Shown here: one piece after another, positions 17,821 through 22,566 of the stretch
Position numbering within the stretch: position 1 is the stretch's first letter
Layout of the letters: every line of letters starts with the position of its first letter
NCBI RefSeq assembly: GCF_016026235.1
Contig: NZ_CP065613.1
DNA length: 64,000 bases
Source of the DNA: Escherichia coli
GTDB taxonomy: Bacteria > Pseudomonadota > Gammaproteobacteria > Enterobacterales > Enterobacteriaceae
Strand: one strand, 5' to 3'
Notes under the pieces: model-generated
What the model saw: only the letters and a program-made list of their open reading frames with translations
Told to the model about the DNA's origin: nothing
Database searches by the model: none
Program-made: the position numbers and the translations under genes

Positions 17821-19023
17821 ATGGACCGCGTCCTTCATTTTGTACTGGCACTTGCCGTTGTTGCGATTCTCGCACTGCTGGTAAGCAGCGACCGCAAAAA
17901 AATTCGTATCCGTTATGTTATTCAACTGCTTGTTATCGAAGTGTTACTGGCGTGGTTCTTCCTGAACTCCGACGTTGGTTTAGGCTTCGTGAAAGGCTTC
18001 TCCGAAATGTTCGAAAAACTGCTCGGATTTGCCAACGAAGGGACTAACTTCGTCTTTGGTAGCATGAATGATCAAGGCCTGGCATTCTTCTTCCTGAAAG
18101 TGCTGTGCCCAATCGTCTTTATCTCTGCACTGATCGGTATTCTCCAGCACATTCGCGTGTTGCCGGTGATCATCCGCGCAATTGGTTTCCTGCTCTCCAA
18201 AGTCAACGGCATGGGCAAACTGGAATCCTTTAACGCCGTCAGCTCCCTGATTCTGGGTCAGTCTGAAAACTTTATTGCCTATAAAGATATCCTCGGCAAA
18301 ATCTCCCGTAATCGTATGTACACCATGGCTGCCACGGCAATGTCCACCGTGTCGATGTCCATCGTTGGTGCATACATGACCATGCTGGAACCGAAATACG
18401 TCGTTGCTGCGCTGGTATTGAACATGTTCAGCACCTTTATCGTGCTGTCGCTGATCAACCCTTACCGTGTTGATGCCAGTGAAGAAAACATTCAGATGTC
18501 CAACCTGCACGAAGGTCAGAGCTTCTTCGAAATGCTGGGTGAATACATTCTGGCAGGTTTCAAAGTTGCCATTATCGTTGCCGCGATGCTGATCGGCTTT
18601 ATCGCCCTGATCGCCGCGCTGAACGCACTGTTTGCCACCGTGACTGGCTGGTTTGGCTACAGCATCTCCTTCCAGGGCATTCTGGGCTACATCTTCTATC
18701 CGATTGCATGGGTGATGGGTGTTCCTTCCAGTGAAGCACTGCAAGTGGGCAGTATCATGGCGACCAAACTGGTTTCCAACGAGTTCGTTGCGATGATGGA
18801 TCTGCAGAAAATTGCTTCCACGCTCTCTCCGCGTGCTGAAGGCATCATCTCTGTGTTCCTGGTTTCCTTCGCTAACTTCTCTTCAATCGGGATTATCGCA
18901 GGTGCAGTTAAAGGCCTGAATGAAGAGCAAGGTAACGTGGTTTCTCGCTTCGGTCTGAAACTGGTTTACGGCTCTACCCTGGTGAGTGTGCTGTCTGCGT
19001 CAATCGCAGCACTGGTGCTGTAA
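17821..19023 (+). CDS. nupC: nucleoside:H+ symporter (CNT family)
   Basis: 400-aa protein [20 protein letters not shown]...; start at internal ATG of the longer ORF. Confidence 0.9.
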
Positions 19024-19042
19024 GACCATACATAAAAAAGCC

Positions 19043-19054
19043 GGGGATAATTCC
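19043..19054. repeat. 12-bp target-site duplication GGGGATAATTCC (left copy)
   Basis: Same 12-mer at 20347-20358; removing the IS and one copy restores the palindrome GCCGGGGATAATTCCCCGG followed by a T run. Confidence 0.85.
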
Positions 19055-20346
19055 TGAGGAATCCCCAGAAAACAAGACAGGCATAGTGAGATGTGATCTA
19101 ATTGATTGTGCTAACAATTTCAAGGAGATCACCACTATGCCTGCACGTTCATTATGCCAAAATTTCCTTAACAACATACTGGCCCCTTTGCATCTTTACC
19201 GTCAAAAATCACTGATTGACGCAACTAATGCTGTAATAAATGGCGCTTCCCTCACACTTACCAGTATCGGGCGTCATTTAACCGGTACGGCATCAGTTAA
19301 AAACAAAATAAAGCGGGTGGATCGACTGTTGGGGAATCGACATTTGCAAAATGAGGTTTCCACCATTTTTCAGCGAATTACCCAAAAGATTACGCGGGGA
19401 ATGTCTCGTGTTGTGATACTCATTGACTGGAGTGCTTATCATGCCTCTCGTTTTCAGCTTTTGCGGGCAAGCCTGGCATGTGACGGGCGTTCTTTACCGT
19501 TGATGAGTTGTGTCGTTCCATCATCACAGACAGCGAATGCAGATGTACATGAGCGTTTTCTGGAATCGCTTGCTGAGTGCTTTTCCCCCGGGACTGATGT
19601 CATTGTTATTACAGATGCCGGTTTTCAGGGGCGATGGTTCCAACAGCTCCGCTCCCGTGGCTGGACCTATATTTGCCGGGTACTGGGCAATCATTATTAC
19701 AATGTTGGTAATGGCTGGGAAAAGGTGTCGGACTCAGGCACAAAAGCATCAACGACAGCAATTTATTTAGGTGAAGGCCTGCTGGGTCGAGATAAAAATG
19801 CACAACATGAAGGGCATTTTTATCTTTATAAAAGTAAGCCTAAAGGTCGTTGATTTAAACGCTCGAAGGAAAGAGCAACCAGACCATCGGTGACGGCTAA
19901 AGCTCGTACTGCCGGGAAATCACCATGGTTTATTTTCACAAACAGTACTGAGTTCTCGCCAAAACAGGTAATGAAATTATACAGCCGTAGAATGCAAATT
20001 GAGCAAAATTTCAGGGATGAAAAAAATCCTCGCTGGGGATTTGGACTACGGTTTGGTGCCAGTCATTCATCCGGGCGGGTCACGGTATTGAGTCTGATCG
20101 CAACATTAGCCAGTATCATTATGTGGTTAAGCGGTTTCAGCCTGGAAAACAAAGGGATACATCATAAATATCAGGCAAATACAGTGAAGCACAGGCGAGT
20201 CATCTCGTTATTAAAACTGGCGGAGAATGTGATTCGACATTCTCCACTCATACTAAACACACTGTCACTTGACGCAGGGCTGAAAGTTCTACAGCAACGG
20301 TATACCAATATGATAATGGTTTACTAAATTTTCTGGGGATCCCTCA
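19055..20346 (+). mobile_element. IS4-family (IS10-like) insertion sequence, 1292 bp, copy 2
   Basis: Same IRs and internal ORFs as copy 1, opposite orientation; inserted 31 bp after the nupC stop and 30 bp from the convergent yfeA stop. Confidence 0.85.
19137..20327 (+). pseudogene. IS4-family transposase; frame interrupted by in-frame TGA at 19851-19853
   Basis: ...YLYKSKPKGR-TGA-FKRSKERATRPSVTAKARTAGKSPW...; where I recall IS10 continuing ...KSRSKGRKNQRS... Confidence 0.75.
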
Positions 20347-20358
20347 GGGGATAATTCC
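20347..20358. repeat. 12-bp target-site duplication GGGGATAATTCC (right copy)
   Basis: Matches 19043-19054. Confidence 0.85.
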
Positions 20359-20376
20359 CCGGTTTTTTTACGCCTG

Positions 20377-22566
20377 TTAATCAGCTAATGGCTGCGGGCG
20401 ACCAATCAAATACCCTTGCAGATATTGCACCCCGAGCTTATGCAATAGCGCCTGCTGCTGTTGCGTCTCGACAAACTCCGCGACCACACTCAATGACTTC
20501 GCTTTCGCCAGATCGGTAATTGATCTCACAATCATCGCATCCAGCGTGTTCGTGACAATATCTTTCACAAAGACGCCATCAATTTTGATGATATCAGCCT
20601 GCAAACGCTTTAACCGTTCGTAGTTGGCATATCCGGTGCCAAAGTCATCAATCGCAATCCGGAAACCAAACTTATGCAGCTGCTCGATGTTGTACATGCT
20701 GCTTTCTGCGTTAGAAAACGCCTGCTCCTCGGTGATCTCAAGAATGACCGCCTGCGGGGAGATGTGATAACGCTTAAACAGACGAATAATCCGCCCGGCA
20801 ATATTCTTTTGCAGCAGCGTGAGCGGCATTAAATTGACTGAAAAGCGCGGTCCTTTTTTGTCGCAAGGGTGTGTTGCCAGCCACTTCAACAAGGATTCCA
20901 GCACTTGCAAATCAAAACGCGCGCTAAGGTTAAACTGAGCAATAAGGGGCAGAAACTTATCCGGGGTCATAATGCCGCCGTCATATTTCAGTCGCGCGAG
21001 GATCTCATCATAACCTTCACCCTCTTTGTTGCGAATTGGCTGGGCGTAGAGCAGCAAATCACCCTGATCTAACGCCGTGCGAATGGTATTCAGCAATAGC
21101 ACCTGTTTAGTGGTCTGCCCGGAAACCATCTCCTCTCTGCTATCCAGCGCCAGCACATGATGATGTGCGCAGGATTGCTCCGCCAGCCAGCTTAACTGCC
21201 CCAACAAGGGTTGCAGGGTTTCCTGATTTCCATCAAAACGCCCCCAGGCAGCACCATAGCCCATATCCAGCCCGGTATTGTTCCAGTGAATTTGCCGACT
21301 ATTCAGGATGTTAACCATATGCTGGAGTCGCCCTTCCGTTTCCGGCCCGCTCAGCACTAACAGCAGTTCACTACCCGGCAATTGATATAACTTTTCGTTT
21401 TCCTGCATCAACGGCAGCAGCGTACGGTAAATTGATCGGATACAGTGAACGCGCATCATTAAGCCGTAATGACGACTCATAAACTCAAGATTATCAATGC
21501 GCAGGCAGCAAAAACTCTTGCCCGCCTCTTGCTCCGGCGCTTGTTCCAACGCACGGAAGTTGGGCAGGAGTGTTAACGGATCGGTCAGCGCCTGCAAATG
21601 CCAGCGGCGATTAAGCCATTCACTGCGATGATAAATGCGCACCATATAGAGCAGGCAAACGCTAAAGGAAATCAGCACCGCAAGAATAAATGCCAGCGAA
21701 TATTCGGTTTCCACCCCTTGCAAAAAGTTCTGGTTGTAATTCAGAAGGCAAAGCGTTGAAACAGCCCAGGTGAGATTTAAAAACGGATAGCGAAGCTTAC
21801 CGACCCCGAGGGTAAAGATGATGAAGAAAACGGGTACCAGGTAACCGGCAATAAAGTCGTTTTCATAAGGTGTGCACAACAGAAGTAGCAGCACGCTTAA
21901 CGCTGCCAGCCAGCTTAAGGTAAATGCGCGTTTCTCTTTGCCCAACGACGGCGCGATATCCCTGCGCCACAATATCTGCGCAAAGTGGGGACTTACAATC
22001 ATGCGAGTGAGATAGTAGAAAAGCATGTTGTAAATCAGCACAGCGGTGAAAAGGCTTAGCAAATCAACGACCGTGAAAATGGCATCCGCATCGCCGAAAA
22101 AGGTGGATATCTTTAGCGGGAAATCAAAGAAGCTCCCCACAAGATACATGCTGCATTTGATGCCGATCGGCGTCACCAAACCAAGCCAGAACAGACGTTG
22201 CCAGACATATCGGCTGGTCAATCCATAACGCCAACGCGTCCCCAGCTGCCAGCGTAATATTGCGCAGGCACACAACACGACAAACGTCTGGCTACCGAGC
22301 ATGACCGCAGTCTGTAAAAAAGAGAGATGAAAGTTCCACAGATTGGTGCAAAACATCCCGCATAAAACGGGAACGACACCGCGCCAGCCAAAGATAAACA
22401 AGATTGACAGCATTACGCACAGTGGCATCCACGCCAGAAAGATATAACTGGAATGGATAATGGCAAGTGGCGAAATAAAACGGGATAGCTGAATAAGTAC
22501 CACGGTGAGCGTAAACGCTAGTGTGAATATCTTGATATTTTTTATCAGGTTATGCTCCACAAACAT
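20377..22566 (-). CDS. yfeA: membrane-anchored GGDEF-like/EAL-domain protein (c-di-GMP phosphodiesterase family)
   Basis: 729 aa from MFVEHNLIKN...; N-terminal multi-TM region, C-terminal EAL domain. Confidence 0.8.
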   Translation of the reverse strand: MFVEHNLIKNIKIFTLAFTLTVVLIQLSRFISPLAIIHSSYIFLAWMPLCVMLSILFIFGWRGVVPVLCGMFCTNLWNFHLSFLQTAVMLGSQTFVVLCACAILRWQLGTRWRYGLTSRYVWQRLFWLGLVTPIGIKCSMYLVGSFFDFPLKISTFFGDADAIFTVVDLLSLFTAVLIYNMLFYYLTRMIVSPHFAQILWRRDIAPSLGKEKRAFTLSWLAALSVLLLLLCTPYENDFIAGYLVPVFFIIFTLGVGKLRYPFLNLTWAVSTLCLLNYNQNFLQGVETEYSLAFILAVLISFSVCLLYMVRIYHRSEWLNRRWHLQALTDPLTLLPNFRALEQAPEQEAGKSFCCLRIDNLEFMSRHYGLMMRVHCIRSIYRTLLPLMQENEKLYQLPGSELLLVLSGPETEGRLQHMVNILNSRQIHWNNTGLDMGYGAAWGRFDGNQETLQPLLGQLSWLAEQSCAHHHVLALDSREEMVSGQTTKQVLLLNTIRTALDQGDLLLYAQPIRNKEGEGYDEILARLKYDGGIMTPDKFLPLIAQFNLSARFDLQVLESLLKWLATHPCDKKGPRFSVNLMPLTLLQKNIAGRIIRLFKRYHISPQAVILEITEEQAFSNAESSMYNIEQLHKFGFRIAIDDFGTGYANYERLKRLQADIIKIDGVFVKDIVTNTLDAMIVRSITDLAKAKSLSVVAEFVETQQQQALLHKLGVQYLQGYLIGRPQPLAD

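Follow-up and report, generated by a model that had tools for sequence, protein, structure and literature searches.

In the 64,000-nucleotide (nt) stretch of Escherichia coli DNA analyzed here (contig NZ_CP065613.1 of assembly GCF_016026235.1; hereafter the window), the convergent genes nupC and pdeA are separated by a copy of the insertion sequence (IS) ISEc60, which lies within a short palindrome predicted to act as the shared transcription terminator of the two genes. The closest complete genome, that of FDAARGOS_943, is near-identical to the window. The features of the locus are as follows.

17821-19023, plus strand: nupC, encoding a nucleoside permease; 400 codons, TAA stop at 19021-19023 (from the list of open reading frames; annotated in FDAARGOS_943 and K-12).
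19034-19053, no strand assigned: left half of the split terminator; A6 (19034-19039) followed by GCCGGGGATAATTC, including the left copy of GGGATAATTC at 19044-19053.
19054-20347, plus strand: ISEc60 copy of 1294 bp; left inverted repeat 19054-19072, right inverted repeat 20329-20347 (from the inverted repeats and the 99.7% nucleotide identity to annotated ISEc60).
20347-20369, plus strand: right half of the split terminator; GGGGATAATTCCCC rebuilt at 20347-20360, followed by GG and T7 (20363-20369).
20377-22566, minus strand: pdeA (yfeA), encoding a MASE1/EAL cyclic di-GMP phosphodiesterase; 729 codons, stop at 20377-20379 (from the list of open reading frames; annotated in FDAARGOS_943 and K-12).

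The IS has the same orientation as nupC, with its transposase gene on the plus strand, and is bounded by terminal inverted repeats of 19 nt (CTGAGGAATCCCCAGAAAA / CTGAGGGATCCCCAGAAAA). On both sides it is flanked by the 10-bp target duplication GGGATAATTC (19044-19053 and 20348-20357). The G/C context at the nupC-pdeA site alone allows a duplication of 8, 10 or 12 bp; the length is set at 10 bp because other ISEc60 copies, which are flanked by A, fix the ends of the IS at CTGAGG...CCTCAG. The GGGGATAATTCCCC at 20347-20360 is rebuilt by the terminal G of the IS together with the right copy of the duplication (20348-20357). When positions 19054-20347 and one copy of GGGATAATTC are removed, the pre-insertion site reads AAAAAAGCCGGGGATAATTCCCCGGTTTTTTT, which is exactly the reconstruction offered in the original prediction, an earlier reading of the same DNA that had placed the IS downstream of nupC in a GGGG-N6-CCCC palindrome; the coordinates and sequence of this placement were confirmed. 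The target core is GGGG-ATAATT-CCCC, and GGGG(N6)CCCC occurs only once in the window, namely at the nupC-pdeA site.

The empty site is also found in nature. A 590-nt query, in which both flanks are joined without the IS, was searched in 5426 complete E. coli genomes; it is matched at 100% identity in the natural strain ECCHD184, and the site is uninterrupted in about 4460 of these genomes (at least 80% of the query covered in one piece). In E2348/69 and O157:H7, the palindrome is even better, being perfect (GCCGGGGATAATTCCCCGGC / AAAAAAGCCGGGGATAATTCCCCGGCTTTTTT) and accompanied by A6/T6 tracts. In genomes free of the IS, where its absence would have spoken against the original prediction, the palindrome is present and conserved.

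The restored site folds into a stable hairpin in the transcripts of both strands (-22.7 kcal/mol, z = -5.9 for the plus strand; -24.4 kcal/mol, z = -4.9 for the minus strand), and none of 200 shuffled sequences folded as well in either case. The stem (CCGGGGA/UCCCCGG) consists of seven to eight G/C-rich pairs, eight in other strains, closed by a 4-nt loop and extended by A:U pairs. Since A6 lies upstream of the hairpin and T7 downstream of it, a U-tract follows the hairpin on both strands. The hairpin starts 10 nt past the TAA of nupC and 7 nt past the TAA of pdeA, and it fills the 49-bp gap between the two convergent stops. All sequence features of a bidirectional intrinsic terminator common to both genes are present in the palindrome, for which this function is predicted here, and the earlier impression that the site resembles a terminator common to nupC and yfeA is borne out by the folding, the A/T tracts and the positions of the stops. 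Literature searches yielded no 3'-end mapping or other specifics for the nupC/pdeA terminator, and those for nupC together with insL, or for IS elements inserted in bidirectional terminators, turned up nothing specific.

In E. coli MFDS1019527, the nupC-pdeA gap contains the hairpin twice, about 90 bp apart, with a palindrome resembling a repetitive extragenic palindromic (REP) element (GCCTGATAAGCGTAGCGCATCAGGC) between the two copies. One copy of the hairpin adjoins each gene, an arrangement that fits the role of a terminator.

The insertion does not simply remove this structure. Of the 14 bases in the core, 10 lie within the duplication, and the first and last bases of the IS are C and G, respectively; each junction retains a G/C hairpin because the duplication covers most of the palindrome. 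The statement in the original prediction that the insertion splits the stem is therefore imprecise, since both junctions keep a hairpin; what holds, according to the folding, is that the hairpin of each gene is parted from its own U-tract. The four directions in which RNA polymerase can cross a junction are predicted to give the following structures.

Left junction, plus strand, nupC transcription entering the IS: GGGGAU...AUCCCC, then AGAAAAC, with no U-tract; -12.5 kcal/mol.
Right junction, minus strand, pdeA transcription entering the IS: hairpin, then UGAGGGAUCC, with no U-tract; -13.6 kcal/mol.
Right junction, plus strand, leaving the IS rightward: CUGGGGA...UCCCCGG, or the restored GGGGAUAAUUCCCC, then U7; -19.6 kcal/mol.
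Left junction, minus strand, leaving the IS leftward: CUGGGGAUUCC...GGAAUUAUCCCCGG, then C and U6; -16.3 kcal/mol.

A pattern scan independently marked a terminator-like site on the plus strand (20347-20360, followed by T7), and found no terminator-like site on the plus strand of the left junction or on the minus strand of the right junction. On the folding model, the terminator is not destroyed but re-partitioned into two halves, each directed outward from the IS. A U-tract is needed for efficient release at intrinsic terminators, and it is a reasonable inference from the junctions that both genes lose their stop-proximal termination; the read-through of nupC and pdeA probably extends no further than the far ends of the IS.

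The best explanation of the locus, which we consider likely, is that ISEc60, following its own target preference, transposed into the core of the shared bidirectional terminator of nupC and pdeA, generated a 10-bp duplication and re-partitioned the terminator. In this model, the IS would have entered the GGGG-ATAATT-CCCC core of a Rho-independent terminator and duplicated GGGATAATTC. As neither gene would then have a U-tract next to its hairpin, stop-proximal termination would be inefficient and the nupC and pdeA transcripts would enter the IS. Since a hairpin is rebuilt beside each displaced U-tract by the duplication and the IS termini, a terminator directed outward would stand on either side of the IS; read-through from nupC would stop at about 20360-20369 and that from pdeA at about 19034-19040. 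Insulation between the two genes would then be preserved, and both would gain 3' extensions of about 1.3 kb that overlap in antisense.

Several points weigh against this account. Both the function of the terminator and its loss are deduced from sequence. A simple terminator scan marked only the plus strand of the intact site; folding was relied on because the scan under-reports the site in this way. The hairpins retained next to the stops (-12.5 and -13.6 kcal/mol) might still pause RNA polymerase or terminate part of the transcripts, and untranslated read-through could be halted by Rho within the IS, short of the far junction. If these hairpins, possibly aided by Rho acting on the untranslated RNA of the IS, still ended the transcripts near their normal positions, the insertion would be transcriptionally silent. 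Such silence would suit the presence of a hairpin at both stop-proximal junctions, as well as the tolerance of the ISEc60 insertion in at least three assemblies and of IS186 at the same place in 17% of genomes. On the other hand, neither of the two hairpins is followed by a U-tract (AGAAAAC on the nupC side, UGAGGGAUCC on the pdeA side), and the scan sees nothing terminator-like at the left junction on the plus strand or at the right junction on the minus strand. A silent insertion is thus unlikely, and the re-partition of the terminator is the preferred reading.

It could also be supposed that the palindrome is mainly a site of protein binding or recombination, or that it is kept as a landing pad for IS elements, with its A/T flanks being incidental. 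The question of whether IS186 target sites are selected for has been raised by Lee et al. (PMC5009759), and the conservation of the site is very high. Against this stand the placement of the hairpin 10 nt and 7 nt past two convergent stops in a 49-bp gap that it fills, the canonical stem of seven to eight G/C-rich pairs with its 4-nt loop and symmetric A6/T6-7 tracts, and the strain in which two hairpins split by a REP element serve one gene each, as expected of a terminator. Furthermore, in a variant in which GGC...GCC is changed to GGT, pairing is maintained as G-U. This possibility is very improbable.

The insertion also bears on the expression of the transposase, for which the following features are relevant.

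19137-20327, plus strand: transposase gene; 396 codons if intact, with an in-frame TGA at 19851-19853 (codon 239); open reading frames 19086-19853 and 19890-20327.
19078-19143, plus strand: leader stem-loop; 19078-19088 pairs with 19133-19143, where the AUG (19137-19139) lies (from inverted repeats and folding).
19093-19099 with 19126-19132, plus strand: inner stem of the leader, adjoining the Shine-Dalgarno sequence AAGGAG at 19122-19127.

The leader region (19054-19170) folds at -38 kcal/mol (z = -5.8). Folding predicts the same structure for 14 related elements of other genera, among which the pair at alignment columns 36/85 varies between C-G, A-U and U-A. A further small hairpin, likewise conserved, is formed by the first 15 nt of the IS end. 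A sigma-70 scan of the leader revealed no convincing transposase promoter. A transcript entering from nupC contains both arms of the leader stem, and the nonsense codon lies upstream of the YREK motif and of the catalytic E in both ISEc60 copies of the window. The original prediction had noted that nupC transcription would read into the IS in the transposase direction; the orientation is as stated, and the consequence is probably small here. Activation of the transposase by read-through is unlikely because the leader can fold back over the Shine-Dalgarno sequence and the AUG and because the gene carries the nonsense codon; translation from nupC read-through would probably be blocked by the leader hairpin, as in the fold-back inhibition of IS10.

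Codon 239 is AGA in all of the 21 other copies that were read, among them the FDAARGOS_943 counterparts of both insertions and the copy next to nupC in GCA_031665325.1. The occurrence of TGA in both copies of the window may possibly reflect gene conversion between them, mobilization of a defective allele in trans, or assembly polishing across repeats.

The element is ISEc60, a member of the IS10 subgroup of the IS4 family. Its nucleotide sequence is 99.4-99.8% identical, over about 1300 bp, to copies annotated as "IS4-like element ISEc60 family transposase." The intact transposase (396 residues) is encoded in a single open reading frame, matches NCBIfam NF033591 with 360 bits against a cut-off of 152, matches PF01609 (DDE_Tnp_1), and carries the Y-(2)-R-(3)-E-(6)-K signature in intact copies (YSRRMQIEQNFRDEK); ISEc60 is a cut-and-paste DDE transposon. 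The protein shares 36% identity over 93% of its length with the IS10A/ISVsa5 transposases of plasmid records. The ends of the element (CTGAGGRATCCCCAGAAAA) have IS10-like 5'-CT termini (CTGAGG...); 5'-CT ends are typical of the IS10 and IS50 subgroups, and a duplication of about one helical turn is a further criterion (PMC2266710). In a literature search, the name ISEc60 was found only in two resistome surveys.

The same hairpin is also used by IS186. In K-12 MG1655, IS186C (insL3, b2394) lies inside the same 14-bp palindrome between nupC and pdeA, with the junctions ...GCCGGGGATAATTCC|CATAAGCG...CGCTTATG|GGATAATTCCCCGG and a 10-bp duplication (GGATAATTCC) that is offset by 1 bp from that of ISEc60. 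Junction queries placed IS186 at this position in 937 of the 5426 complete genomes (17%), with 472 oriented as in K-12 and 465 the other way round, one case of the latter being verified base by base. The target of IS186 is 5'-GGGG(N6/N7)CCCC-3' (PMC5009759; PMC6925257), which is rare (19 + 35 loci in K-12) and is used in either orientation (Lee et al., 2016, PMC5009759); the site in the window matches it perfectly. Thus, the ISEc60 insertion is an ordinary transposition at a natural hot spot, one at which the K-12 reference annotation has IS186. A terminator scan found no terminator-like site at the right junction of the K-12 IS186, and found one at the right junction of ISEc60.

The original prediction had matched the target type to the preference of IS186-type elements, from which one might suppose that the IS in the window is itself of the IS186 type and was placed simply by the known IS186 target rule. 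In favor of this are the perfect GGGG(N6)CCCC of the site and its occupation by IS186 in 937 genomes, K-12 included. The match stands for the site and fails for the element: a shared GGGG(N6/N7)CCCC target does not make the element a member of IS186. The identity with IS186 was tested and ruled out by annotation and nucleotide identity, end sequences, protein alignment and NCBIfam model. The terminal repeats are CTGAGGRATCCCCAGAAAA and not the 23-bp IS186 repeats CATAAGCGCTAACTTAAGGGTTG read from K-12; a BLASTP comparison with InsL (370 aa) aligns only 22 residues around YREK; and the best model is NF033592 for InsL and NF033591 for the transposase of the window, which is annotated as ISEc60 and resembles IS10A as described above. 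An IS186-type element is therefore hardly credible, and the insertion is that of ISEc60.

The target preference of ISEc60 itself was derived from the ends of this element and its close relatives in E. coli records, in a scan of species-representative genomes, in a metagenome scan and in an exact-protein look-up. The profile comprises 29 non-redundant end flanks, with positions counted outward from the IS end.

-1 to -3: C in 21-26 of 29 flanks.
-4 to -7: A or T in most flanks.
-8 to -11: G in 21-25 of 29 flanks.
-15 to -17: A in up to 22 of 29 flanks.

The consensus is GGG-W4-CCC with A/T-rich flanks and a duplication of 10-11 bp. Among the 13 insertions for which both flanks were available, duplications of 10 bp were found at 11 sites (GGGATAATTC, GAGAATTTCC, GGGATAACCA, GGAAATTCCC, AGGATTTCTC, GGGATATCCC, GGGAATTCTC, GGGATTTTCC, GCGAGTTCCC, GCTTTGACCC and GGGATCACTC) and one of 11 bp at a plasmid site (GGGAAAATCCC); one plasmid copy, the flanks of which differ by one base in a record marked as frameshifted, was left out, as were two copies with non-matching flanks that are presumably recombinants. 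Several targets are perfect hairpins shortly past stop codons, such as those after dnaJ (GGCGGGGATCACTCCCCGCC) and near a hok gene (GCGCGGGGATTTTCCCCGCGC). On a plasmid of about 47 kb (pCFSAN029787_02 type), the hairpin GGCGGGGAAAATCCCCGCC is followed by T5 and lies directly past a TGATGA stop; the orientation of ISEc60 at this hairpin differs between records, indicating independent insertions in both orientations, and the hairpin is a second recurrent hot spot of ISEc60 with terminator anatomy. An upstream A-tract is present at 10 of 28 ISEc60 sites, compared with 10% of the other GGG-W(3-5)-CC motifs in the same DNA (Fisher p = 5e-4). This enrichment could instead reflect the survival of harmless intergenic insertions and not a preference of the transposase. 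In the flank data, the two end flanks of one insertion are not independent. The hairpin between nupC and pdeA would have been chosen because it matches the preference of ISEc60 for a G-run, an A/T spacer and a C-run within A/T-rich flanks, and as IS186 shares that preference, its presence there in 17% of E. coli genomes would be explained. The claim of a target preference thus holds for ISEc60, the element actually present, and is a modest new point.

In RMDEC364 and GCA_031665585.1, a tandem pair of ISEc60 copies separated by 10 bp (GGGATTTACC) lies in the GCGCGGGGATTTTCCCCGCGC hairpin near a hok/gef gene, and the outer flanks of the pair carry the duplication GGGATTTTCC.

The scan of species-representative genomes also revealed the 19-nt end CTGAGGRATCCCCAGAAAA on many IS elements in Photorhabdus, Xenorhabdus, Serratia, Pragia, Arsenophonus and others. 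A G/C hairpin of 3 bp or more abuts the end in 61% of the 79 distinct flanks, compared with 10% at random positions (p about 2e-26), and in many cases an A-tract precedes it, as in AAAAAACCCGCCGAAGCG|IS. These flanks have the polarity CCCC-N-GGGG and not GGGG-W-CCCC, and because some of them are repeated sequences (Xenorhabdus griffiniae), repeat families may account for some of the signal.

The window contains a second copy of the element.

11123-12416, minus strand: second ISEc60 copy, inside fryC, identical in sequence and inverted; duplication GAGAATTTCC at 11113-11122 and 12417-12426.

The sequences of the two copies are 100% identical. When the nupC-IS and IS-pdeA junctions were sought in the 5426 complete E. 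coli genomes, both occurred only in FDAARGOS_943, where they sit on different ISEc60 copies because the 6.6-kb segment between the copies ('fryC-fryB-glk-yfeO-ypeC-mntH-nupC) is inverted, and the duplications are mismatched. By contrast, GCA_031665325.1 has the arrangement of the window, with the transposase intact. The window represents the ancestral arrangement and FDAARGOS_943 the derived one, because the duplications match in the former and not in the latter. The segment between the copies is thus an IS-mediated inversion polymorphism, and the two inverted copies are an active substrate for inverting the glk-nupC segment. Although FDAARGOS_943 has recombined between exactly these two copies, inverting 6.6 kb, an origin of the nupC-IS-pdeA arrangement by homologous recombination between ISEc60 copies, with a hybrid junction, rather than by direct transposition is very unlikely: in the window, GGGATAATTC flanks the nupC-pdeA copy on either side and GAGAATTTCC does so for the fryC copy, which is the signature of direct insertion, the mismatched duplications are those of FDAARGOS_943, and GCA_031665325.1 has the window arrangement.

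These observations have several implications. The IS that follows nupC in this lineage should be annotated as ISEc60 and not as the IS186C of K-12. The nupC/pdeA hairpin is a recurrent landing site of two unrelated IS4-family elements, with at least 17% of complete E. coli genomes carrying an insertion there. Since IS186 lies in the K-12 site, the K-12 reference lacks the native bidirectional terminator, and K-12 transcriptomics is uninformative on it. The consensus GGG-W4-CCC, with its 10-bp duplication and A/T flanks, is a first target-site profile for ISEc60. The profile data hint at homing to small G/C hairpins, in many cases terminators, by a whole clade of IS10 relatives. It is also tempting to speculate, as a tentative generalization, that ISEc60 and its enterobacterial kin of the IS10 subgroup sharing CTGAGGRATCCCCAGAAAA are terminator- or hairpin-homing elements, the transposases of which choose short A/T-flanked G/C palindromes, typically intrinsic terminators, and the junctions of which rebuild outward terminators. 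If so, the duplication of about 10 bp, the C...G termini and the internal GGGG/CCCC of the ends would remake a terminator at each junction; the element would land safely between genes and keep its neighbors insulated, and the leader fold-back would shield it from external transcription. Clade-wide homing would then explain how a high copy number is tolerated, FDAARGOS_943 carrying 38 copies of ISEc60. The new points are modest, comprising the identity of the IS, a preference like that of IS186 and IS231 within the IS10 subgroup, and the proposed re-partition of the terminator, and they do not overturn the current understanding.

The locus can be compared with four known systems. Bidirectional intrinsic terminators between convergent E. 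coli genes have reportedly been described as a class from SEnd-seq work (Ju et al., 2019; bioRxiv 10.1101/2022.10.23.513370). The nupC/pdeA palindrome resembles them in its G/C stem, its symmetric A- and U-tracts and the short convergent gap that it fills, and differs in that the K-12 reference of most such studies has IS186 in this very terminator. IS186C is inserted in the same palindrome as the ISEc60 of the window and belongs to the same broad IS4 family, and the palindromic target takes either orientation, as described by Lee et al. (2016). However, IS186C is 1339 bp long, has CATAAG... ends and an InsL transposase that falls in NF033592 and aligns with that of ISEc60 only at YREK, and its right junction in K-12 retains only a 4-bp stem, a weaker remnant than that left by ISEc60.

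IS10 of Tn10, the type element of the subgroup, resembles ISEc60 in its transposase (36% identity over 93% of the length), in 5'-CTGA...ATCCCC terminal repeats and in the 5'-CT ends of the subgroup. In addition, IS10 reportedly evades activation by external transcription through fold-back of its leader (Davis, Simons and Kleckner, 1985), and the leader RNA of ISEc60 can likewise fold back over the ribosome-binding site. The two elements differ in their targets: IS10 makes 9-bp duplications at the symmetric consensus NGCTNAGCN, whereas ISEc60 duplicates 10 bp, occasionally 11 bp, at GGG-W4-CCC. A 9-bp target consensus of IS10 is also given in the literature (PMC2758499).

In its target profile, ISEc60 resembles IS186 and IS231A rather than IS10. 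IS231A of Bacillus thuringiensis reportedly inserts at GGG(N)5CCC within A/T-rich bent flanks and generates duplications of about 10-12 bp (Hallet et al., 1994). This consensus is very close to the ISEc60 profile, although IS231A belongs to another IS4 subgroup, has 5'-CAT ends and resides in a Gram-positive host. Target specificity is a feature of the IS231 group (IS4 review, PMC2266710). If the homing of ISEc60 and its kin is real, it would represent a convergence with the rules of IS186 and IS231 inside a subgroup whose type member, IS10, follows a different one.

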